Source of the DNA: Eledone cirrhosa
Lineage: Eukaryota
Reading direction: 5' to 3'
DNA: 64,000 nucleotides
Assembly (NCBI GenBank): GCA_964016885.1
Contig: OZ024742.1
Location: 330,708,001-330,772,000 of the forward strand
A model generated the notes under the pieces. It was not told the DNA's origin, did no database searches, and saw nothing but the letters and a program-made list of their open reading frames with translations. Position numbers and translations under genes: made by a program. Each line of letters begins with the position of its first letter. Position 1 is the first letter of the stretch. This document shows positions 4,087-56,190 of the stretch, in pieces.

Positions 4087-5136
<1,050 letters not shown>

Positions 5137-5560
5137 ATAAAAAATTGAACAGGGACAGAACAGAGAGGCAGTACGACAAATGTTTATTAGATTCACGCTC
5201 AGGAGAGTGGGGGGTAGGTGGAGGACGACGTTTCGGGCATAAGCCCTTCTTCAGGTAAGAGTTCAAAAGGTGTGTAGGGGAGTGGTGGAGAGACATATAG
5301 CGAAAGGAAACGGTGCGAATGAAAAATTAACAAATAAAGACAAAAATATAATAAATAAAAATAAAGCATGATCAAAATACAAGGAATGAGAACATTTAAA
5401 AATAAAGGCATGATCAAAATAAACTGAAATTAAAAGGGGGGTAAACAGGTGGTGGAAGGGTGTGGGGTGAGTAGAGGTGGAGGCGGGTGGAGTGGGGAGA
5501 GGGAGACGGGGTGTCCGAGCGGGGAGTAGATGTCGTATTTAATTTGTTGGAAGGCCGACA
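5137..5560 (-). mobile_element. PLE pLTR fragment (C/T-rich UTR, HHR, AATAAA, tail into (AT)n)
   Basis: Minus strand: pyrimidine-rich region, then CTGAAGAAGGGCTTATGCCCGAAACGTC, then AATAAA about 40 nt later. Confidence 0.65.
5225..5256 (-). ncRNA. Minimal hammerhead ribozyme motif
   Basis: CUGAAGA-A-GGGC(UUAU)GCCC-GAAACGUC. Stem III has no loop (dimer-type) and stem I is only about 2 bp. Confidence 0.7.
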
Positions 5561-5980: not shown

Positions 5981-6488
5981 TTCGAATATTAATAATAATA
6001 TACGATTCGTTTACACTAATGCAAACAGTGCATTTTATAAGCCACGTCTGAGGAATGAGTCCCTTATTATCGCTCTTGTGTTGGCATTCAAACATAAATG
6101 CAGACACTAATGTTTCTGGTTGATTAACCTTCATCAGTGCAGTTTACTGCTTACCTGTCAACTGTCAGTTAAAATATATGCTATGTTCTGAAATATACTG
6201 TGATTCATCAGCCTGATTTGCACATTAGCAGATTGGCTGATCACTCAGATCTGCATATTAGTAGACCCACTGATTAGCCAGATTTGCATATCAGCAAATA
6301 GGCCAGTCAGTTTCATGTATATGAGCGATTAATGGCCGGTTTTTCCATATTCAAATAACTAACATCTAGTTATCACTCTACATGGCTGAATATAATAAAT
6401 GTAATCTGAGTTTTTCGAATAATAATAATAATATTCGATTCTTTAGCAATTATGTAAACAGCCTCTATTATAATCCATGTCAGTAATA
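5981..6488 (-). mobile_element. HHR-bearing element with about 433-nt period (about 1.2 units)
   Basis: 5981-6050 recurs, diverged, at 6414-6485. Contains one HHR and three internal 33-bp repeats. Flanked by (AT)n. Confidence 0.6.
6099..6141 (-). ncRNA. Type I hammerhead ribozyme
   Basis: UGCA-CUGAUGA-A-GGUU(AAUC)AACC-A-GAA-ACA(UUAG)UGU-C-UGCA. Core intact, GUC cleavage triplet. Confidence 0.8.
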
Positions 6489-11021: not shown

Positions 11022-11052
11022 ATAAATATATATATATATGTATATATATATA

Positions 11053-11534
11053 TATGTATAAATAGTTCGTATCTCCAAAGAAATACAGTTTTAGGAAGCC
11101 GTATCTATGCAAACACCGGGGGGTTAACGCCCTATAGTGATGTCCAGCAGAAGCAAGCGGGACAACCGTCTATGCATTTCAGACTTAACTATCCTTCGTC
11201 AGGACGGTCCCTCCCACCGCTTGCGACTGCTGGACTAGAAGACAGGTGATAATATATACTTTTCTCGTCTGTGTAAATGAGGTGATTAATCTCATTTGTA
11301 TATGAAGCTGCATAAGTTGGCTCAACTGATAATAAAAAAGAAATAGGATTTCTCTTCAAGCAGAGCTTTATACAATATGTATAAATATTTCGTATCCCCA
11401 AAGAAATACAGTTTTATGAAGCCGTACGATATGCAAACACCGGGTGGCTAACGCCCTCCTAAAACTGTATTTCTTTGGAGATACGAAATATTTATACATA
11501 TTGTATGAAGCTATCCTTGAACCGAAATCCTATT

Positions 11535-11541
<7 letters not shown>
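11053..11541 (-). mobile_element. Candidate retrozyme family B: 323-nt tandem unit (about 1.25 units) plus inverted end
   Basis: TTCGTATC..AAAGAAATACAGTTTTA at 11066 and 11389. 11458-11541 is an inverted copy of the 3' end with a 40-nt tail. One HHR per unit. Flanked by (AT)n. Confidence 0.8.
11165..11208 (-). ncRNA. Type I hammerhead ribozyme, intact core
   Basis: ACCGUC-CUGACGA-AGG(AUAGUUAAG)UCU-GAA-AUGCAU-A-GACGGU. 6-bp stem I and palindromic stem III. Confidence 0.85.
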
Positions 11542-11590
<49 letters not shown>

Positions 11591-11595
<5 letters not shown>

Positions 11596-11709
11596 AACAA
11601 GTAAGACCCCCTTGGGGTCTTACTTGTTCCTATTACCCACTCTACTACCCTAAGTATTGAGTACTTTGGTGCGTTATGGTCCACCTGGTTCCTTACCACA
11701 TTTCCTCCG

Positions 11710-11711
<2 letters not shown>
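11591..11711 (+). mobile_element. Miniature asymmetric palindrome: 20-bp perfect hairpin plus 78-nt tail
   Basis: ATAGGAACAAGTAAGACCCC-CTT-GGGGTCTTACTTGTTCCTAT, then a tail containing TTGAGTAC. (AT)n on both sides. Confidence 0.7.
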
Positions 11712-11757
<46 letters not shown>

Positions 11758-12028
11758 GTATGTACACGTACATACATATATGTATACAGACGTACAGTAG
11801 TATGTATATATATACACATACATGCACATGCATATATATATGTAGGTATGGATTCACCGAACATTTATTATAATGCTTGGCGTGTTTGTAAACAAACATC
11901 CCGTATTAAGCCGTAGCGTCTAGCAACCATCGTTGCTCGTTTGTTCAACACTGACTAAAGAATTGGGCTACTCAGCCGTTAATATGCATAAGGTAAGTAT
12001 ATACATTCAACAATCTGGTAGTAGGTAT

Positions 12029-12071
12029 ACGTTGCTGACGATAGCTCATAAGCTTGAAACTAGTACAGCGT
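12029..12071 (+). ncRNA. Type I hammerhead ribozyme (family C, unit 1)
   Basis: ACGUUG-CUGACGA-U-AGCU(CAUA)AGCU-U-GAA-ACUAGU-A-CAGCGU. Confidence 0.8.
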
Positions 12072-12546
12072 TCCTTTGTCAGTGTTGAACAAACGAGCAA
12101 CGATGGTTGCTATACACTTCTGCTTAATACCGGATGTTTGTTTACAAACACACTGAGCATTATAATAAATGTTCGGTGAATCCATACGTACATATATATA
12201 AGTGTACATATATGTATATATTTATACATGCTACTGTACGTCTGTATACATATATGAATGTTCGGTAAATTCATACGTACATATATATTTATGTGTGTGC
12301 ATGTATGTATATATATATATATATACATACTACTGTACGTCTGTATACATATATGTTTGTACGTGTACGTACTTATATTTAAGTAACAGCCGTACTAAGA
12401 GTGGGAAATGAAATTTCGTTTCATTTTCTCCGTTTAACGTTTTCGGTGCACCCGGCCGATTAACCCACTCGGTATGCAAATTGGGCTACTCAGCCGTTAA
12501 TATGCATAAGGTAAGTATATACGTTCAACAATCCGGCAGGAAGGTG

Positions 12547-12589
12547 ACGTTGCTGACGATAGCTAAGAAGCTTGAAACTAGTACATCGT
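12547..12589 (+). ncRNA. Type I hammerhead ribozyme (family C, unit 2)
   Basis: Same fold with loop II AAGA and one stem I mismatch. Confidence 0.75.
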
Positions 12590-12970
12590 CCCTTTGTCAG
12601 TGTTTAACAATCGAGCAACGATGGTTGCTAGACACTACGGCTTATTACGGGATGTTTGTTTGTTTACAAACACACCAAGCATTATAATAGATGTTCGGTG
12701 AACCCATACGTACATATATATATGTGTGCATGTATGTATATATATATACATACTACTGTACGGCTGTATACATATATGTATGTACGTGTACATACTTATA
12801 TTTAAGTAACAGCCCTATTAAGAGTGGGAAATGAAATTTCGTTTCCTTTTCTCCGTTTATCGTTTTCGGTGCAGCCGGCCGATTAACCCAGTCGATATGC
12901 AAATTGGGCTACTCAACCGTTAATATGCATAAGGTAAGTATATACGTTCAACAATCTGGCAGAAAGGTAT

Positions 12971-13013
12971 ATGTTGCTGACGATAGCTAATGAGCTTTAA
13001 ACTAGTACAGCGT
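12971..13013 (+). ncRNA. Hammerhead (family C, unit 3), probably inactive (G12U)
   Basis: Same fold with loop II AAUG, but GAAA reads UAAA. Confidence 0.65.
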
Positions 13014-13274
13014 TCATTTGTCAGTGTTGAACAAACGAGCAACGATGGTTGCTAGACACTACAGCTTAATACGGGATGTTTGTTTACAAACACACCGAGC
13101 ATTATAATAAATGTTCGGTGAATGCATACGTACACATATATATGTGTGCATGTATGTATATATATACACACTACTGTATGTCTGTATACATATATGTATG
13201 TACGTGCGTGTACATACTTATATTTAAATAACAGCCGTACTAAATGGGAAATGAAATTAAGTTTCATTTTCTCC

Positions 13275-13341
<67 letters not shown>

Positions 13342-14975: not shown

Positions 14976-17820
14976 AACTATACTTTAACAAACTATAAAG
15001 AAAGATTATCTTTATATAGACAGTTTATCCGTTTACGTACACGTCAATCACCCAAGTCACGCCGCTGAGGAGATGGCAATTCCACCGCAGGTAGCTTTGT
15101 TAATACTCCGGGATGTATGACACAACGTTGTCCTTTAGGTATACATTAGTCTTTGACTACCTATTTCAGATATTTTGGGGTCAGGTCCCAAAATATAAGA
15201 TTCTATGGTCAGCACTTTTTAATAGCCTTGTTTCTCCCATTGAAGTGAATAATTAATGAATATGATGAGTTCGGTGATTGGATATATAGAAGAGAAAAAC
15301 TAAACAATATGACAATTAGAAATCTTTTAAGAAAAATATATATTCAATAATAAAATAAAGGAAATCAAATGATACAGTGACCATGGGGTTAAAATGGAAA
15401 ATATCAAGAAGCTTCAAAAGGTGGTTCATATGATCGCTTGTAGCTAATAGCGATTATCTATAATTTCGATTTATGAATTTGTCTTAATCAGGCGAAGTTG
15501 GATTTGCCCATGTCTTTAGGTTGAGTTTAAGGGGGTTGGGAGTGAATGAAGACATCAACCCACGTCTTCAGACACTTGGTGGAGGATTTATTTATAATTA
15601 GTAGAATATTCCATATTTTGGCCATGCAAAATTGACAAGCTTCAAGTCAGTTGCGTAAACATGGGATCTTTGAAACCTCCAATTTGAAGGCGAACTTAGT
15701 ACCGCGGTCTTTAGGTATCAACACATAGCTTGTAAGTTAATGTTTGTTCTTTTGTCCATATGAGGATTAATCTTTAGAGTGACGATCTCACAATCGGATT
15801 GATAAGTCGGGGTTTAATTGCCGACGCTGCGGTTTGCCCTTGGGATAAAGTGTATGTTTCACTTTGTTTGAATATAAGTATCAAGCGCTTCTGTATATAT
15901 GAAATTATACATTCATGTCTATGCGCGTCTATGTTTGTGTCCTGGGAAGCAGGATATTGATATCGATAAAACCAAAACGGAACATGTAAATTCTTACTGG
16001 GGCCGATATGGTTGACGAAATCTATTTAAGGCGAGATTTCATTGCTTGAGTCTATTGATCGAAATCAATGCAACAGTAATAATCCTACAATATGTAGATT
16101 TACAGTGAAATGAAATAATTGAGAATAGAAATTGATCACTGATGTGATGGAGTGGAAGGTGTCATTGCTGTGCAGAAGGAAGCAAATGACAGGTAAATTT
16201 ATCGCAACCTTTTTCTAGAAAACAGTTTATATATTATTTAACATTTATCGGTCTTGGTGGTGGATATATCAATCGATGTGTTCAACGGAACATCATGAGC
16301 GCCAACTTATCATGTCATTGCCTAAGCATTCTACACTTACATGTACGCGCAACGCTTTACTCACAGAGCTTGAACGTGTCATTGTGTGTGACATAACTGC
16401 CCCTTTGAATTACCAGTATCATTCATTTCCTCAACCGCAGTTCACTTGAAGAATGTGCAGTAGCGTATCATTCTCAAGGACACACTTAATTGCTGGGAAT
16501 AGAACTCACGACTATAAATGTTAGCCCCAAAAGCTAACGCTTCAACCAAGCCCATTCACGTGTTTGATGTTGAAAAGCACCGAAATGTAATAATTAAGAA
16601 TATATATACCTCACTCTTCAGATATTATAGAATGTGGCAGTGACGTGCCGAGGTAAGGAAAAACAATTAATGTGAATACATCATTTGATCATAACATAAA
16701 AGCAAATAGACTCCTAACGTTTTATTATTTAATACGTATAAACCAAAGCACAACTTTGATGCAACACAACCTATTTTGTTTGTGGGTTTCTTGGGATCGC
16801 ATAAACCCCTTGTTTTAGCAACCATTGGGTCACATTTAAATAGAAAAACATGTAATATGGTTGAATTTTGTGTAGCATATTGCTTGCAGTAATTAACATT
16901 AAAGATGTTCAGGAAGGTGTTAGTAATTTGTGTAAAAAAAAATCTAAGACACCCGTATGTGGTGATAAATAAGAAACTAGTGAATTTTGCAATAGAAAAA
17001 GATGACTGAGCTAGTCTGATATCATTTATCATATAAAAATGCACGATATCTGAGAAGTGCTGATGAAAGGAACGTGGAGATAGATAGATGGATATACAGA
17101 TAGTTTGTTACATAGATACCTACACTCAGAAAATAAGGGAGAAGGAAAGAGAGAGAGAGCAGTGATACATTGTGTGAAGGCGAAGAAAAGAAGGGAAGCA
17201 AAGGAGAGAAAAGTGTGAGGAGGAGAAAGAGAATGAAAGAGAACGGTAGAGAACGGTAGAGAAGTAGGGAAATGGAAGGTTAGAGAAAAAGAGAAAGAAA
17301 GAAGTAACAAACTGATAGATAGATCGTGTAATGTAGAAATATATATATATATATATATAAATAGAGGTTGAAGTAAAGAAAGAAAGGTTTAATATAGAGG
17401 AGAGAAAGAGAGTGACTTAGAAAAAAAGAGAAACATCATTAGTAAGAATGGAACGAAAACCAATAGTTTAAGAAGGATAGAGGCAGATTCGTACGTTTGA
17501 ATTATATGTTAACATAGTAGTAGAAGTAATGTTAGCAAACGACTGACATTTCCATAGAAAATATATATTTACACATAGAATATCATAATGAGATAAGCAA
17601 GAAGAAAGATTAAACAAGAGCGGGGGTGAAAGAATCAGTAATCAAGCAAAACCAGAATTTCAACTCCATGTGATTCTAGTTTTGTTTGAGTCGTATCATT
17701 AACAGAAATATGGATCATGACCCAGGCATCGGTGAAACGTCCGTAACTGAGGCTAATCAATAAAAGCCACAACGTGATACTTCGTTTTGTTCTGATATAT
17801 ATATATATATATATATATAT

Positions 17821-18406
17821 CGTTTCTGAATTTGTTTAGCAAGATTCTTTATCTGAAATCGTTTGTTGAAACCGATATTGTTATACTTTGGGAGGGTCAT
17901 GTTGCCAATAAGAAACATACGCACCAGTTGCTTTCACTTCAATTTATTATATATTTATAAATTTAAAAATTTACAAATCCACAAATTTATAAATTTCTGG
18001 TTGGTTGGTTGGTTCCACAACCAGATAGTTGTTTATATATAGTCATAGTCCTTTCGTCACACACTCTGTGACCTCTTCAGTGACTGGGGATTCCTTTCTT
18101 TGTTTCTGTGCCTTTCCTTTCTTCTGTCCTACGCCATTTTGTTTCTGCGTAGGACAGAAAAAAGGAAAGGCACAGAAACAAAGAAAGGAATCCCCAGTCA
18201 CTGAAGAGGTCACATAGTGTGTGACGAAAGGACTATGACAATATATAAACAACTATCTGGTTGTGGAACCAACCAACCAACCAGAAATTTATAAATTTGT
18301 GGATTTGTAAATTTATAAATTTATAAATATATAATAAATTGAAGTGAAAGCAACTGGTGCGTGTGTTTCTTATTGGCAACATGACCCTCCCAAAGTATAA
18401 CAATAT
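17821..18406. mobile_element. Asymmetric palindromic insert: 260-bp arms 17875-18134 and 18147-18406, 12-nt spacer, 54-nt tail
   Basis: Near-perfect inverted repeat, also seen as mirror-image ORFs in the track. One HHR per arm. Confidence 0.9.
18041..18085 (-). ncRNA. Minimal hammerhead (mirror copy 18196-18240, plus)
   Basis: AGUCA-CUGAAGA-G-GUCACA(GAGUG)UGUGAC-GAA-AG(GA)CU-A-UGACU. Confidence 0.75.
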
Positions 18407-19481
18407 ATAGGAATGAAAAATGCCGTGCTGTTTTGTTGCGGGTAGATACATATGAAGTAAATATTAGAAAGAGAAGCCTGGACTATCCTTCATTAGTGAT
18501 CTACTAGCCATCAAAGGTATTTCTTCGCATTAAAGATCAGATACCTCCGGCCAGCGCGAACAATAATTAAATAAGTTATTAGGATAAAAAGAATTGGATT
18601 GAGAAAGAAAGACAGGTGAACAAACAAAAATGGTGGGGCAACGTAAAGAGAGGAAAAATGAGAAAATTAAGTCAGTTATTCATTTGAACATAAGAACTTG
18701 CGAACATTGACGAGAAGACGAAATACCATTTGTATCGTGCGAAAAGTGAGCGAGAAAATAATTTCGTACGGTGCTGGACGATGGAGTAAGTGAGAGAGGG
18801 TGAGTAGCAGAGAGTGAGTGAAAGTGTGAGGAAGAGGCTAGTTGAGAGAGGGTGACTAGCAGAGGGGGAGAATGAAAGTAAGAGAGAGAAGGAGAGAGAA
18901 GGATGGGAGGGACAAATGGAGTGCTATGTTGTTGCATAAACACAGCACGCCATTTTTCATTCCTATAAGCTTTCCCCTTCGCTGTGACCTGTCTTTTTCT
19001 GTTTCCTTACTGCTATCCTCTTTTTCTCTCCCATTTCTCTCTCCTCCTTCTTACTTTCATTCTCCCACTCTGCTAGTCCCCTCTCTCGACTAGCCTCTTT
19101 CTCACACTTTCACTCACTCACACTCTGCTACTCACCCTCTCTCACTTCCCCCATCGTCCAGCACCGTACGAAATTATTTTCTCGCTCACTTTTCGCACGA
19201 TACGGATGGTCTTTCGTCTTATCGTCAATGTTCGCAAGTTCTTATGTTGAAATGAATCACTGACTTCATTTTCTCATTTTTCCTCTCTTTGCCATGCCTC
19301 ACCATTTTTGTGTGTTCACCTGTCTCTCTTTCTCCACCCAATTCTTTCTATCCCAATAACTTATTTTAGTTATTTTTCGCCCTGGCCGGTGGTATCTGAT
19401 CTTTAATGCGAAGAAACACCTTTGATGGCTAGTAGATCACTAATGAAGGATAGTCCCGGCTTCTCTTTCTAATGTTTACTT

Positions 19482-27769: not shown

Positions 27770-30700
27770 CTACAGGCTGATATAGAGAGAAGGCCCATTC
27801 ACTCGGGCCATTCTCGCCACTTTCACCCACCTTTCATAAAACTTGCTGGGGTACAGCACCTCTCTCTCCATCCTGATTCTTCTTCCAAAGTGGTATTTGA
27901 AAAAAAGAATCAGTTGTTGGCCGGAGAGAAAGGTGTCTGACCTCAGCCTTTTCAACCTTGTCCAAAATACAACCTCTTTCGCCATAGCTATCACACAAAG
28001 CAAACCGCCTCTCCTTCGTTTTTGAAGGAGGGTGGCGGTTTGATCATGACTATGGACTCGGTGGTCAACTGGATTGGTCCCACCCTCGACAATAGTCGTT
28101 CTACATAGCCCCACAGGTCAGTGACGCCCGGGCAGTGTATGAATGCGTGCGCGACGGTTTCTTCGTCTCGCACGCACCTCGGACAGATTTTTTTTGCAGG
28201 GTCCCTGACCGGGCGCCCATGTCTGTAGAGCTTGTCTCGAACTGGTAGAGCTCCTCGGTAGCACTGCCAGGCCAGGAACTTTTGGAAGTTGTCCATCGGT
28301 CCCGGGCGGAAGGTCCTACCGAACAGACTGGCCAGTTCATCTTCCTCTACATCTAGAGTTTCACCGAGCGCGTCGTCGCACTTGCTGCGGACCAACCCTC
28401 TATAGAATGACAAAGTGGAGTCACCACTGATCGCCGGGTCCGCCTGCCAGAGGGATGTGAGCGCCTGAGCACATTCGATGTGCCGGTCGCCCATTTTCCT
28501 CGGTCTTTGCTTGACCCAGGATTGCAGCTCGGTCAGAAGACGAGTCGTGGGAGGCTCGCCTCACGAACGGAGCCCACACCGGTTGTCCGGTGAGTAATAC
28601 GTAGAGATGCCGCAGCCTGAGCGCGTGTTTGCGCATCGTCAACCACGGCATCCCCAGCCCTCCGTTAGAAGGGTGTTGGCAGCAGATGGATCTTCTCACC
28701 AACGGAACCCGCCTCTTCCAAAGGAATCGGAAGAGCGCGCGCTCCATTTTGGCGAGCGTTTTGGCTGGACAAGGCACGACGGTCAAGCGGTAGTAGATGG
28801 CGGACGCTATAAAAGTGTTCGCCACCTCAACTCGAGCTTTCAAGGATAGTTTGCACTCGGCCTACTTCTGGGTGAGTGCAATCACTTTCGCCGTCACTTC
28901 GTTCCAGTTCTTCTCCACCTGGAGGTCCGGACCAAACCTGACCCCGAGCAGCTTTACCGGTCCTTCCGTCCAGCGTCCGACGACGCCATCGGAAGGCATC
29001 GGTCTGCCTCTCCACGATCCGAGTTGCAAACTGATGGACTTGTCCCTGTTCAGCTTCGCTCCTGTGAGACTTTCGTATTCCTTCAGTAAGGTGCCGACTT
29101 CCTCGATTTGCGAGGCGCTCGACACCATTACTGTAACGTCGTCGGCGTAGGCCGACGCCGCTTTCCGCAGTCCCGGTTCCAGAGGGATGCCCTGCAATAG
29201 CTGCAGCTTCCGCAGTAGTGGCTCGAGAGTCAGTACGTACAGAAGGGAGGAGAGAGGGCATCCCTCTCGAATGGATCGCGTAATACGGAACGGCTCCGAG
29301 AGGTAGCCGTTCACCTTGACCCTTGAGCAGATGTTGCTGTTGTGTATTGCAGCAATCCAGCCCCTGAACACGGGTCCGAAGCCTGCCGCCTCGAGCACCG
29401 CATCCAGGTAACGATGGTCAACCCTATCGAAAGCCTTAGACTGATCCAAGTTGATCAGAGCCCCACCGAAGCCGGGCTTACACTCTACCCTCTCTATGAT
29501 GTATCGCATGAGGTGGAGGTTGTCGTGTATGGACCTGGTCGGGATTGCGCATGTCTGCGCTTCTCCCACCAGGTTCTCGATGACAAGCGCCAGCCTCTTT
29601 GCCAACACCTTGGCCAAAATCTGTAACTCTGTGTTTAGCAGAGTTATGGGCCGGAAGTTGCCTATGTCATCCCCCTTATTCTTGTCCTTCCTGATTAGTG
29701 TGACCACGCCCCCGGTTACAGAACTGGGAATTCTCCCGTTCTGTTGCCGGTTGCAGTAGACCGCTTCCAGGAGACCGGAGAATAAGTCCGGCATTGCTAC
29801 GTAAAATTCGTAGGGTAGACCGTCGAGACCTGGAGATTTGCGTTTGCCGCATTGGCTCAGCGCGTCCCCTATCTCAGTGGCTGAAATCGGCTTTTCGCAG
29901 AACTTTGCCCCGCTGTCCGAGAGTCGCGGTAGGCCGTCGAGGTATGGACCGTAATCCATAGCCTCTCCCGGCGCGCCGCTCCCCCCGAACAGCCGAGCAA
30001 AGTGCCGCTGAAAAGCCGCACACATCTGCTTCGGCTCACGTATCACGCGTCCGTTTTGGTCCTTCGACCGAATCGTGGACTTGTTGCGACGTTTGCCTCC
30101 GTCACTCCGGCCCAGCTAACAGCTTTGGTTCCCTCGTTTCCCAGAGCACATATTTTGCTTCTGACAACGCAGCCCTCGTGCTTTGCGTCGAAAAACTGCT
30201 CCAAGGTCGTTATCGTTGCTAGCACGCTGGCTACGTTGCCACTTCTAATTGCCTCTTCTACTTTATCTACCAGTTCCTTCTCGTTTCTATTTCAATCTAA
30301 CGCTAATTCTTTACTAAAAACTATCGAGTCTAACCTAACTGCCCTCTTGAGAGAGTACCACCATCTGTTGTTGACAATGGCCCCTGTCAAGTGCTGTTTA
30401 ACTAAAGTGCTAATCCGTCTACTGTAGGCTTTGCTTGTCGGTAGCGACAAGTTCAGCTTCCAGTAGCCGGGTCCTTGTCTATGGGTTCTATCAAGGTTGG
30501 CCATGCAGGTCACTAGTTTGTGATCTGAATAGGCAACCATGAACATTTGTGGACAGCTTAACATGTCCCTATCCGTATTTCTAACTAGAACCCTATCTAG
30601 GTACGATCTAGATGTTCCGCTACGATTAGTCCACGTCCACAGTGGCACAGTCGGAAAATCTAATCGATATCTATCGGCCAGGTCAAATCGGTCTATTAAC

Positions 30701-31204
30701 TGTTTGAGGCTGTTACACCCCTCTTTATCGGGACATGCTCCACATAGTACAAACGTGCATCTAGGATTCCATTCCAGTCCCCCACTAAAATCAAGGAGCG
30801 GGACGTTCCCAGAAAAGTCTTTAGACGTTTGAAGAAGGCTGGCCGCGGTGTCCCAGATGGGGCATATGCGGCCACCAGCCTGAAGGCTCCACCTTCACTA
30901 CCGTCAACGTCTAGAACCACCAGTCGACCCTCCGGGTTCAGATGTACTGTCTGTGTTACGAGGCCCAGGTGTTTCCGCAGCAAAACGGCAACTCCGCCCC
31001 CACCCCCCACCCCGGTTGACAGAGAGATGCGTAGATCTCAAAGTCATCGAAGATGGGGGCCAGCTGTCGCTCGCCGTGGATCCTGGACCCGCAAATGGCT
31101 ACCACATCCATACTGTGCGACCTGAGGTTGTTTAAGAGTTTGCCATGTTTCCAGGGCATCCCCAGGCCGCGTACGCTCACACATCCAACTCTTATATTGG
31201 CCAT
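27770..31204 (-). pseudogene. Tx1 ORF2 (APE endonuclease, RT, C-terminal Cys/His domain), frameshifted
   Basis: MANIRVGCVSVRGL, ILVGDWN, SYLDR..SDH, GPGYWKLN, SPGLDG, FRPITLLN, DQSKAFDRVDH, GCPLS, AYADD, CPRC..ETVAHAFIHC. Confidence 0.92.
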
Positions 31205-36526: not shown

Positions 36527-39500
36527 GAAAACCCCGTGACCAAGAAATACCGGGATGGCGGCCGGCGGGGAATAGCCGTGTCTCTAGGGGAGAACGACCC
36601 CTCCAGTCTTGGTTGACACTCGTTCTAGAAGTGGTAACACGAAATGATTACCCCTTGGCGGATAAGGATAAAACGCGACAAAATAAAGTAAATGTCTAAT
36701 GATAAAATCTCATACCGGATCGGCCGTCACCCGGGTAAAAAAGGGCCGCGTCCCTCGGAGAGGAACCAGACTGGGGTCGAAAAATCAGCTAATGGTTCAA
36801 ACCTTCCCATCACTTCGGAGCTGGAGACCTCCCATAACCGGAATACTCCTACTGTTGGCCCTCCATGCTCACCACCAAGAAATCCAAAGAAAAAGAGAGA
36901 AAAATGGTCAAGGGAAGATAATAAAGAAGTCCTTGTGGCTTTCTACACTGCCATGTACTACCCATCAAATACATCGAATACAGAACAGACATATATCAAC
37001 TGGAAAAAGAAACATCCCGAAAACAGAGGCTATATTGACAGTAACAAACTAGCCAATATACGAACAAATATTGTAAGAAAAAAGTTACTAACTGATATAG
37101 AAATTGATCAGATCAAGCTATTAGCGCAAAGTCAGCGAAGGGAAAATGAAACATGTGTCAGGAAAACGAGGTAAATTGTAATACTTCGAATCCCAGGGTT
37201 GGGGCGGAATCACTGGCAACAGAACAAATTAAAGAAAGGATCGAAAAAGTGGAGGGAGTGCATGCTCAAGATGAAACTCCAAATGAAAATAATGAGATCG
37301 TAAATGATAAAGAAATGAATGAGAATGAACTTGCCAACTTGAAGGATGAAATTATGATCGAATGGATGAAAATGAAAGTATCTGACATGGGGCAACGAGA
37401 CACCCTCCCTAAGATCCAGAACTCCAAACAGAACCAAAAGATAATACACAAGACTAACATAATTCTCAAAAACATTATCATCACAAACAAACTAAACATT
37501 ACTGATTTAAATCATCTCTATTATGCATCGGCTAAAGTCACCACTCACTTATGTGGAGTGAAGATGAAAAAACAAAGGAATTACCACTAGAAATCTACTT
37601 GGCAAGAGATCATCAATCGCCAAATAAACCTTCTCCGATCTGACATAGAAATGTTAACAAACTATAAAGTAGGTGAACATGTTAAACAAACTAAACTTAG
37701 AAAATTGAAAAAAAAGTACTGTATAAAATCAACAAGTGACATAGACATGCTGATAGAAATAATCAAGCAAAAAGTGTCGGCCAAAGCTGCTCGTATAAGG
37801 CGCTTTGAAAAACGATCTAGATTCTATAAGGACAATAATATGTTCAAAAACAACCAAAGAAACTTCTACAGAAGAATTGTTAAGTCAACAATAACTGCTA
37901 AATCAATACCACCCAAGGAGGAAGTGCAAAAATTCTGGGAAAAGATCTGGGCCGAAGAAAAAGTTCTTAACATACAAGCCCCATGGATAGACAGACAAAT
38001 GAAAGATACAGCTCACCTTGAGGAACAAATATGGAAAAATATAACAGTTGAACAGTTGCGCTTGGCTCTAAGTAAAACCAGCAAATAGAAATCCCCAGGA
38101 AAAGACAAAATACAAAACTTTTGAATAAATGCCTTCACAGAGTCTCATGAGCTGTTAGCCCAACTTTACAATGAAATAGTTAAGGAGCCAGAAAAGATAC
38201 CATCATGGCTAGTTAACGGCATTACATTCCTGCTACCGAAGAATGATGAGACAAACAATCCCAAAATTACAGACCGATAACTTGCTTGACCACAATGTAT
38301 AACATGTTAACATCAGTACTAACTGAATACACATATGACCACCTGATAACAAATGACCTATTTCCCATTGAGCAGAAAGGGTGTAAACGAGGCTTATATG
38401 GCTGTAAGGATCAGCTTCTGGAGAACAAAATGATACTGGAAGATTGTCTTAATAGACACAAAAATCTATCGATTGCTTGGATAGATAATAAAAAAGCATT
38501 CGATAGTTTGCCACACAGTAGGATTGAAAAATGTTTAGAGATTTTAAAAATATCCCCCGTTGTCAGGAGGTTTTTGTCATTCAGTATGAAGACCGGGAAA
38601 ACGACACTCCTTTTGAATAGTGAAAGAAAATCACGGGAAGCTGGAGAAGATAATATTAATTGTGGAATTTTTCAGGGTGACTCTTTATCACCGCTTTTAT
38701 TCTGCATCGCTCTTATACCATTAAGTAAAATGCTCAATGAAACAAAACATGGATATAAAGTCTATGACAAAACCATTAATCACTTGTTCTACATGGATGA
38801 CCTGAAACTATTTGCAAAAAATGATGAACAATTGCAAGGGCTATTATCCACTGTGGAGCAGTTCAGTGATGACATTAAAATGGAGTTTGGACTAGATAAA
38901 TGCGCCAAAGCAACGTTCACCAGAGGAAAGCTGCTGAGGAGTTCAGACATTAATCTTGATCGGGGGAACGTGATAAGAGAACTTGATCAAGAAAAAACTT
39001 ACAAATATCTAGGTGTTTGTGAAGGAGACGGAACCAAGCACTCGACAATGAGGGAAAGGATAAGGAAGGAATGTTACCGCAGAGTAGGAGCAATCTTAAG
39101 AACGGAATTGAATGCAAGGAATAGGATCGATGCCATAAACACGCTTGCCATACCAGTAGTAACCTACAGTTACAATGCCATCAACTGGTCAAGCACAGAG
39201 ATCCGTAGGCTCGATACAGAAATTCGAAAATTCTTAACCATGCACAGAATGCATCACCCTAAGGCAGAAATGATAGAATATATCTCCCTAGGAAAGAAGG
39301 AGGACGTGGGTTAATCCAGTTAGACATTGCGTTGAAAACTGCAACAATTGGATTATCTACATATCTAAGGGAATCACATGATTGGATGATCAAACTCGTT
39401 TTGAAACACGAAAGCATCAAAAGATCATATTCCATTACAAAAGATGCACAAAGATACAGTAATGGACTAGACATTTCAGACGTCCCATTTACTGCTGAAA

Positions 39501-40481
39501 TGGAAAACACAGAAAAAGCAAAGCAGGTAAAAGTAACTGCAAAGAAAGAACTGCTACAGAAACTGGCTAAGAAATGGCAAGAAAAGCCTCTGTATGGAAA
39601 ATACCCAGAGCGAGCTAACATTCCTGATGTTGACAAAACTTTAACCCATCATTGGTTGGCATCCTCTGGACTGAAATCGGAGACTGGAGGACTGATTATA
39701 TCAGCACAAGATCAGTGTCTACCAACAAAAAATACCAAGCCAACATAATAAAAAATGGATGCAGCCCATTATGCCGTGTATGCAAAAAACAACCAGACAC
39801 CATTGACCATATAATTTCAATGTGCAGTCCTATAGCCCCAACCGAATACCTAAACAGGCATGACAGAGCTGCACAATACATACATTGGATAGTGTGTAAG
39901 CATTTTGACCTTCCCCATCAAAAGAATTGGTGGGAGCATCAACCACCTCCCATACTTGAAAAAGATCACATCTCAATCTTGTGGAACTTTAGCATCCAAA
40001 CAGACCGAAAAATAGATGCAATTAGACCTGATATAATAATGAAGGACTTTAAAAAGAGGGTATGCCTGCTAATTGATATGTCTGTTCCAATAGACAAGAA
40101 TGTATCTATAAAAACATTTGAAAAATTGAGCAAGTATAAGGACCTGGAGATAGAAATTGGAAAAATGTGGAAATTGGGAACTAAAACAATACCAGTGGTT
40201 GTAGGCGCTCTGGTAAGGATACCTAAGGGGTCTAATGATTACTTATCGCAAATCCCAGGAAACCCGCGTATAGGAGAAATACAAAAGATACTACTAATGG
40301 GAACTGCCCATATACTAAGGAAGATTCTGTCAATATAAATACATCACAAGTCTAAACACTAAAGATGCATGTGTGAGTATGTATGTTCTTTCTTGAACGT
40401 GGCGGACCTTGTTGTCTCTTGAGGTCACTGGTTGTGACTTGGTGATAACTCGTATGAACATAAAGCAAGATAAATGCAACT

Positions 40482-40513
<32 letters not shown>
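36527..40513 (+). mobile_element. R4/Dong-type RLE non-LTR retrotransposon, near full-length, decayed, (TAA)n tail
   Basis: Single broken ORF 36692-40338: Myb-like WSREDNKEVL, EQKGC, KKAFDSLPH, GIFQGDSLSPLLF, HLFYMDDLKLF, YKYLG, CRVC..HIISMC, RHD, RPDII..LIDMSVP..KLSKYKDL. Ends in (TAA)n at 40483-40513. Confidence 0.9.
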
Positions 40514-40514
<1 letters not shown>

Positions 40515-41345
40515 TTCTTTGAGAAAACTGAATTCAGAGATCCACAGACATGGAACTGGTTGAAAAGAGGAGACGTTAAAAAGGCTACAGAAGGAATGTT
40601 AATGGGTGCGCAGGAGCAGGCCCTCAAAACGAAGTGGTTGAAACACCACATTTACAAGGAGGAGGCTAGCCCACTGTGCAAGATCTGTGGAGAGAGAGAG
40701 GAGACTGTGGCTCACATTGTATCCGAGTGTACACCTAGCCCAGACTCACTATAAGGGCTGGAGACATGATGTGATGGGCAGGGTGATCCACTGGCACCTA
40801 TGTAAAGTAAACAATTTACCACATTCTGAGAAGTGGTATGAGCATAAGCCAGAGGCGGTGATAGAAAACGATCAGGTGAAGGTGCTGTGGGATTTTAGGA
40901 TACAGACGAACAAGAAACTGGAACACAATAGACCTGACCTGGTGGTTGTGGACAAAGAAAAAAGGTCGTGCCTGATTGTGGATGTGGCCTGCCTATTCGC
41001 CACGAGAGTGCAAGAGAAGGAGAGGGAGAAAATTAACCGATACCAGGACTTAAAGTGGGAGGTAAAAAGGATTTGGAACTGCCATGAAGTCAAAGTGGTC
41101 CCCATTGTCATAGGCGCACTAGGTACTATCTCAAAAAGTTTCCAGGGATGGTTAAGCAAAATTGGCCCCTTCACGCTTTTTGGAACGCTTCAAAAGGCAT
41201 GCTTGCTGGGAACAGCAAGAACCCTCCGATACATCCTGAATATCTGAGGCTGCAGGTAATTGCTTGATATTCATTCCAACGGACTTTCCAGTTAACCAAC
41301 ATCAATGACTGAGATTCAAGGAATAACAACAATGGTGATGATAAT
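40514..41345 (+). mobile_element. Second, 5'-truncated R4/Dong-type element of a different family
   Basis: TWNWLKRG..AQEQAL, CKICGEREETVAHIVSEC, RHD, NRPDLVV..VDVA..KINRYQDL, LLGTARTLR. Followed by a TAA/CAA tract. Confidence 0.88.

Positions 41346-54540: not shown

Positions 54541-56190
<1,650 letters not shown>

Follow-up and report, generated by a model that had tools for sequence, protein, structure and literature searches.

The closest systems described so far are the non-LTR retrozymes of coral, mussel, axolotl, and Xenopus (PMC7229834; preprint 10.64898/2026.07.22.740005). In the accounts given there, these are non-coding tandem units of a few hundred nucleotides, present in thousands of copies. 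Each unit carries one canonical type I hammerhead and is predicted to fold as a highly self-paired circle, and the retrozymes co-exist with Penelope-like elements (PLEs). The repeat family reported here from Eledone cirrhosa resembles them in all these respects, and its U-U at the base of stem II has a counterpart in the axolotl motif HHR_Amex2 (PMC7229834). Cleavage and circles have been shown for those retrozymes and are predicted for the present family. Mobilisation by Penelope and copying of a circle have also been proposed there, with no insertion-end footprint described in the available portions of the two reports; in the present family, two fixed ends, a 56-nt tail, two-armed (TA)n insertions, and private variants shared between arms have been measured. 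Rolling-circle target-primed reverse transcription has been proposed for animal retrozymes, and no demonstration of it was found in the literature searched. The giant squid paper counts 235 hammerheads and, in its available part, says nothing further on them (PMC6962438). In the main texts of the openly accessible literature searched, no description of the 422-nt family or of a two-armed retrozyme footprint was found.

The other relatives are the EN+ PLEs, for which 5′ truncation, partial tandems, a head-to-head inverted copy, an optional tail at one end, AT-rich or (TA)n targets, and two internal starts of reverse transcription are reported (PMC8557442, PMC3846280, PMC11167929), all features that recur here. 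Penelope elements as such are described as truncated at the 5′ end, accompanied by an inverted copy, and tailed on one side only (PMC8557442; PMC3846280). The Penelope protein studied in vitro by Frangieh et al. cuts AT-rich DNA on both strands, extends each of them, and begins copying at two internal positions of the RNA that delimit the tail (PMC11167929). The present unit differs from these elements in having no ORF, in its tail of 56 nt against the 30-40 nt reported there, and in arms that hold up to 8 near-identical units. Its proposed priming sites end in a UAU that matches the target, whereas the starts of the anole element are described as not homologous to the cut DNA (PMC11167929). 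The minimal hammerheads in the pseudo-LTRs (pLTRs) of metazoan PLEs (PMC4209133) likewise have a weak palindromic stem III, suggesting dimer cleavage. In contrast to that published form, the present motif has a canonical 6-bp stem I, a 4-bp stem II, and a long extension of stem I. The coding Penelope-like families of this genome carry different, minimal-looking hammerhead motifs, unlike the 422-nt unit.

The stretch of DNA analysed, here called the window, is 64,000 nt long. In what follows, unit position 1 is the first base 3′ of the predicted cut. The locus is made up of the following pieces:

11711..11754, no strand: (TA)n tract, left half of the likely target
11749..11962, minus strand: inverted arm, unit positions 6-219, ending at the short 3′ end of the family, which faces the (TA)n; no ribozyme core
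11962..12264, plus strand: start of the direct arm, 5′-truncated, unit positions 318-422 and then 1-201
12254..12583, plus strand: restart at unit position 100 and on to 422, with about 100 nt repeated, the source of the 518-nt spacing
12584..13007, plus strand: the single clean full period, 424 nt, with 20 of 368 scored sites off the family's commonest base
13008..13280, plus strand: last partial unit, positions 1-275, ending at the long 3′ end of the family
about 13226-13280, plus strand: tail, the final 56 unit positions, missing from the inverted arm
13278..13334, no strand: (TA)n tract, right half of the likely target

Read from left to right, the order is thus (TA)n, an inverted arm of positions 6-219, a direct arm that runs from 318 across a cut to 201 and restarts at 100, two more cuts, position 275, and (TA)n. 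The original prediction had seen a tandem trimer of three head-to-tail units, a description that does not survive, as 11749-11962 is an inverted partial copy without a ribozyme. The spacings of 518 and 424 nt were both given correctly, but the tandem 424-nt periodicity drawn from them was not: the longer interval results from a step back from position 201 to 100 at 12254-12264, which duplicates about 100 nt, so that only one clean 424-nt period exists. Compared with the family's commonest base, the pieces differ at 59 of 1,266 scored sites. The locus is an aged two-armed insertion, about 5% decayed and with one core lost. Only 2 variants are common to its own pieces, a number that cannot discriminate between models of the template.

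Three hammerhead motifs are found in the direct arm:

12029..12071, plus strand: hammerhead 1, complete core, 6-bp stem I, U-U followed by a 4-bp stem II, palindromic ACUAGU stem III; predicted cut after 12065 (GUA)
12547..12589, plus strand: hammerhead 2, complete core, one U-U mismatch in stem I; predicted cut after 12583
12971..13013, plus strand: hammerhead 3, G12 replaced by U at 12998 (UAAA for GAAA); predicted cut after 13007

The predicted cuts after 12065, 12583, and 13007 agree with the positions of the CUGACGA cores (12035, 12553, and 12977) and with the two spacings, and the AGCU/AGCU stem II, the loops CAUA, AAGA, and AAUG, and the ACUAGU palindrome are all present as first described. 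Within 11756-13278, the type I descriptor recognises 2 complete motifs, and it recognised none when this sequence was doublet-shuffled 2,000 times; together with a reversed genome-wide control that gave no match (see below), this means that the motifs are not due to chance. At gathering thresholds, Rfam gave no match anywhere in the window.

G12 is the general base of the hammerhead. The core of hammerhead 3 is predicted to be inactive, because this base is replaced by U, and only two of the three motifs have complete cores, not one working hammerhead per unit as had been supposed. For cleavage after 13007, a different core would have to act, in a dimer. Complete cores flank the 518-nt interval on both sides, while release of the 424-nt interval would need its downstream site to be cut by another core in this way. 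With its downstream core changed at G12, the window locus is not supported as the source of a 424-nt circle. For the activity of a retrozyme, the preprint 10.64898/2026.07.22.740005 gives two rules: the locus lacks the complete hammerhead in every repeat that its figure legend asks for, and has, at 12035 and 12553, the two consecutive complete motifs of the looser rule in its methods.

Folding as a circle was compared with 40 dinucleotide shuffles for each sequence. The z-scores were -6.9 for a young unit, -4.8 for the 424-nt interval of the window, and -6.0 for the 518-nt interval. In the predicted circle, stem I extends into a long rod and stem II forms, whereas the two-pair stem III does not. 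The ACUAGU duplex was calculated at -4.8 kcal/mol, a model value in line with dimer cleavage, which is described for motifs with weak palindromic stem III (PMC4209133; PMC7229834). Among the Xenopus retrozyme dimers, 8 of 9 did not cleave, according to the preprint 10.64898/2026.07.22.740005.

The window locus is one of many. The ribozyme pattern with a free loop has 7,711 exact matches in the animal's own genome (3.0 Gb), dispersed over many contigs, and the reversed control has 0. In natural arrays the period of the family is 422 nt, and 55 of 59 motifs at 30 loci have a complete core. Arms of at least 2 units occur at 15 of 57 loci and arms of less than 2 units at 42. The unit has no plausible ORF, and no ORF with RT plus GIY-YIG lies between the repeats. 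The original prediction of a non-coding multimeric repeat with a canonical type I hammerhead, that is, a non-LTR retrozyme, therefore holds at the level of the family, with a 422-nt unit. It was to fall if the unit were only the pLTR of a coding PLE, and the family is found as free multimers. Judged by sequence, the family has the defining features of a non-LTR retrozyme and lacks those of a coding PLE, and it is classified as a further member of the known non-LTR retrozymes. The window element is a real but decayed member of this large family, and as a copy it is unremarkable.

The variation of loop II beside an invariant stem II had been taken as a sign of selection on structure. The three loops are just 1-2 changes away from the AAUA of the family, and a mutation test over the whole genome, in which four bases were freed at a time and C or T at the third base of loop II were both taken as normal, points the other way. 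Deviant forms make up 2.5% for loop II (194 of 7,711), 6.2% for the 5′ strand of stem II (498 of 8,015), and 4.1% for GAAA (322 of 7,839). Selection on stem II was consequently rejected, since stem and GAAA mutate more than the loop. The order of stem, GAAA, and loop is explained by base composition, as G and C mutate faster. Copies decay with no protection of the stem or of the catalytic core and no sign of selection. The existence of two loop subfamilies, the usual AAUA and AACA, is the sole sign of a tolerated change in the loop.

The strongest signal, absent from the earlier reading, is the two-armed end structure of Penelope type. The main sample was drawn along contig C1 in genome order, over its first 51 Mb, and comprised 57 loci, each with an intact ribozyme pattern; one further match there was left out, and one locus came from a freed-base search. 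In all, 96 arms lying wholly inside their loci were counted. Their 3′ ends fall near position 219 in 36 cases, near 275 in 42, and elsewhere in 18. In other words, 78 of 96 arms end at one of two sites 56 nt apart, and 67 of these 78 run into TA. Both fixed ends terminate in UAU. The 5′ ends are ragged and evenly spread; an accumulation at the ribozyme cut, suggested by eye, was rejected on the genome-order sample, where 5 of 96 lie in positions 1-30 against about 7 expected. Among 33 head-to-head pairs of arms, 19 combine a short and a long end, one has both ends short, one has both ends long, in 10 an end falls in neither class, and in 2 the locus edge truncates an arm. One end of each kind is thus present in 19 of 21 classifiable two-armed insertions (p=0.0002), and the window locus obeys the same rule, with a short end on the inverted arm and a long end on the direct arm. 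Fixed 3′ ends, a tail on one side, ragged 5′ ends, and (TA)n together constitute the "tail" pattern of Penelope, and insertion of the family by a Penelope-type mechanism is regarded as highly probable.

The nature of the template was approached through the cut site. With a query just downstream of the cut and with no ribozyme required, 27 of 29 loci (six of them from two regions) continue past the cut site, one of them (L041) by 12 nt; the other two break off at positions 1 and 6. A template without an end at the cut is implied, that is, a circle or an uncut multimer, and a cut linear monomer cannot template such copies without jumps. Within a young array of the AACA subfamily, units differ by 0.1-0.5%, and each arm, to the left and to the right of the inversion, may contain as many as 8 of them. 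In the young insertion on C7 (16611600-16616000), a 32-nt variant stretch is carried by every unit that covers it; it has 11 matches in 3.0 Gb, none outside that insertion, whose two arms hold 7 and 4 of them. A private variant present in all units is explained by one template copied repeatedly, and a homogeneous source array missing from the assembly would also explain it. An insertion at C1:50.6 Mb (50603000-50606600) contains a second variant that has 16 matches, half of them on the two arms of this insertion and the remaining 8 at scattered places as single copies. A third young array has a variant confined to one arm, where 6 of 7 pieces carry it, compared with neither of the 2 pieces of the opposite arm; this distribution argues against one template for both arms there. 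The A-to-G excess that would mark RNA-editing scars was 54 versus 42 (p=0.10, not significant), and 8 versus 2 among variants shared between arms.

Not all arrays obtained their length on insertion. In four older ones (L227, L190, L030, and L027), the inner units share variants missing from the terminal or inverted pieces, so these arrays grew locally after insertion. The proposal that the family is copied by rolling reverse transcription is upheld in part: it is supported for one young insertion, through the 11 of 11 matches of the C7 variant, and is compatible with a second, whereas these four older arrays grew in place. At L227:2515-7266 (G000:C1:49584000-49588800), an arm of ten units shows an 842-nt dimer period, with a change in stem II in alternate units. 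A dimer circle with one damaged ribozyme was considered for the dimer period of L227 and L190 and was rejected, as the inner units are mosaics of the terminal pieces; for L227, the inverted arm, which is without most of the variants, also counters it. Long heterogeneous satellite-like arrays of the unit were observed at several places over about 90 kb of C28 (L048-L051, G000:C28:109.97-110.06 Mb), with 5.9% difference within.

Our main reading, to which we assign a probability of roughly 0.62, is that the window locus is an aged hammerhead repeat written into (TA)n by a Penelope-like enzyme, probably from a circular 422-nt RNA. Under this account, a source array would be transcribed, and the predicted hammerheads, probably acting as dimers via the ACUAGU palindrome, would release monomers that a host ligase would close. 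As the footprint suggests, the GIY-YIG/RT protein of a coding Penelope-like family would nick both strands of (TA)n, and reverse transcription would be primed from both nicks at internal RNA sites at about 219 and 275, each ending in UAU. The two cDNAs would stop at random positions and be joined head to head, giving the observed structure of one arm with the 56-nt tail and one without. The private variant carried by the units of both arms in a young insertion would come from one template read round and round. The copies then decay with no sign of selection, and some arrays expand locally, both of which are seen in the family. The circular template, taken separately, is considered probable. 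Its fullest version, in which a Penelope RT/endonuclease dimer primes both strands of the nicked (TA)n, circles one ribozyme-made 422-nt RNA from two fixed starts, and writes mirror-image concatemers in a single event, has in our estimate an even chance of being correct.

The template of the same insertion could also have been the read-through transcript of a tandem source array, left uncut. The hammerhead would then be incidental to mobility, and no circle would be needed. This reading seems unlikely, though several observations agree with it. In the Penelope system studied in vitro, as reported in PMC11167929, hammerhead cleavage was dispensable, most of the template was unprocessed RNA, and the cut was not the end point of any read. 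Crossing of the cut site and even 5′ ends fit uncut RNA equally well, long arrays that could be transcribed exist (L048-L051), most arms are shorter than two units, and the variant confined to one arm of a young array fits two different templates. However, an uncut template requires a homogeneous source of at least 7 units with the private variant, and the assembly holds none, all 11 matches being in one insertion. In addition, the C28 array sampled is heterogeneous (5.9%), against the 0.1-0.5% of the young insertions.

In place of either template, the unit could be a pLTR or 3′ remnant of an unsampled coding Penelope-like element, of which the copies are truncated forms. Ends, tail, inversion, and target are the same as in coding elements, retrozymes are reported to derive from pLTRs (preprint 10.64898/2026.07.22.740005, as far as its text was available), and the profile search of the genome with PF01541 gave about 10,600 first-look candidates, of which 150 were scored and just 46 GIY-YIG-anchored loci were examined. 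Against these points, arms longer than one period continue into another unit and not into a shared ORF, and the ribozyme is canonical and not of the minimal form described for metazoan pLTRs (PMC4209133). Furthermore, Penelope-like coding sequence lies directly 5′ at 2 of 63 flanks and belongs to two unrelated families whose other copies are without the unit. We hold this origin to be very improbable. Lastly, a satellite-like repeat spread and lengthened at the DNA level only, with a vestigial ribozyme, would account for the local expansion of four older arrays and for neutral decay that includes the catalytic bases, but it is largely refuted: the 3′ ends are fixed, strand-specific, and at TA, the 5′ ends are ragged, a short end is paired with a long one, and short copies are dispersed by the thousand, all of them marks of retrotransposition that coding Penelope-like elements show as well.

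Insertion by a Penelope-like enzyme, as preferred here, calls for a helper, and two coding families were considered. The first, a C-rich Penelope-like family, has about 2,200 candidates at 98% identity, is 4.7 kb long, and possesses a CxxxxCxxC linker, a minimal hammerhead, and a 3′ end in (TA)n; no tail-length end was found in the 14 loci examined. The second, named here after its 58-nt tail, has about 900 candidates at 98% and intact frames of 1,238-1,261 aa, with YVDD, CxxxxCxxC, and a GIY-YIG-like motif. Its two long ORFs were assigned to no Pfam family and were classed by these motifs and by blastp (E 2e-16 to a protein with RVT_1 and GIY-YIG). Its two 3′ ends lie 58 nt apart in (TA)n, with a short and a long end on opposite arms at L256, L262, and L263 and two long ends at L258. 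The linker motif places both families among putative Neptune/Nematis-type elements, following the description in PMC8557442.

The 422-nt unit shows no sequence similarity to either coding Penelope-like family, nor to the 46 GIY-YIG-anchored loci apart from inserted copies of the unit itself. The C-rich family was rejected as its parent, as there is neither similarity nor an end of tail length in the 14 loci. Among 63 free 5′ flanks, two are same-strand fusions to truncated Penelope-like bodies of two different families, at L018:1-1904, where (TA)n lies on both sides, and at L007:300-1954; 17 others match repeats located in PLE-bearing loci. Template switching is the simplest reading of the two fusions, and insertion with deletion of the target is the alternative. 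The length of the tail weakly favours the 58-nt-tail family as the helper; shared sequence points to neither family, and the two fusions involve different ones.

Retrozymes have been described from animals before, and a standing hypothesis holds that Penelope-like elements mobilise them by way of circular templates. The present family supplies measurable footprints, namely, two start sites, a tail, two arms, and variants private to an insertion. With these footprints and intact candidate helper proteins in the same genome, the hypothesis becomes testable in the existing type of in vitro assay. If correct, the family would be a genomic record of rolling-circle target-primed reverse transcription, and gene-writing work would have an interest in a reverse transcriptase able to turn small circles into concatemers at a defined microsatellite. 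This significance lies with the family and not with the window locus, and younger loci are better material for such tests.

Several other features of the window were recorded. A 510-aa open frame on the minus strand (54544-56076) has at its C-terminus the start of a sulfotransferase domain (PF00685, E 3e-4, below the cut-off) and presumably resembles an exon of a heparan sulfate sulfotransferase. No exon downstream of this frame turned up when the window was scanned for motifs, so the hammerhead locus may sit in a long intron. Decayed frames of non-LTR retrotransposons with RT motifs lie at 27770-30900 (minus) and 36690-41250 (plus) and have no match to the Penelope-like ORFs tested. Both coding Penelope-like families have left fragments. 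A 3′ fragment of the C-rich family at about 5150-5500 on the minus strand has a minimal hammerhead at 5254 and ends in a long (TA)n tract (4091-5136). Two 3′ ends of the 58-nt-tail family form a head-to-head pair at 17820-18410, one long and one short, with hammerheads at 18080 (minus) and 18201 (plus).

A second hammerhead repeat family adjoins the locus at 11052-11540. It has a 323-nt period and a core at 11202 on the minus strand, a palindromic AUGCAU stem III, an inverted arm, and two 3′ ends in (TA)n, separated by about 47 nt. A first look at the genome gave about 2,100 candidates for it, and a match to a PLE ORF was found in 0 of 15 loci. A near-perfect short palindrome occupies 11594-11633, immediately 3′ of a (TA)n tract. 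Other CUGANGA...GAAA motifs of the window are located at 6137 (minus), 8340 (minus), 13515 (minus)/13523 (plus), 48574 (minus), and 52994 (plus). Of these, the motif at 6137 is accepted by the type I descriptor, and the 13515/13523 pair is also seen in other loci.
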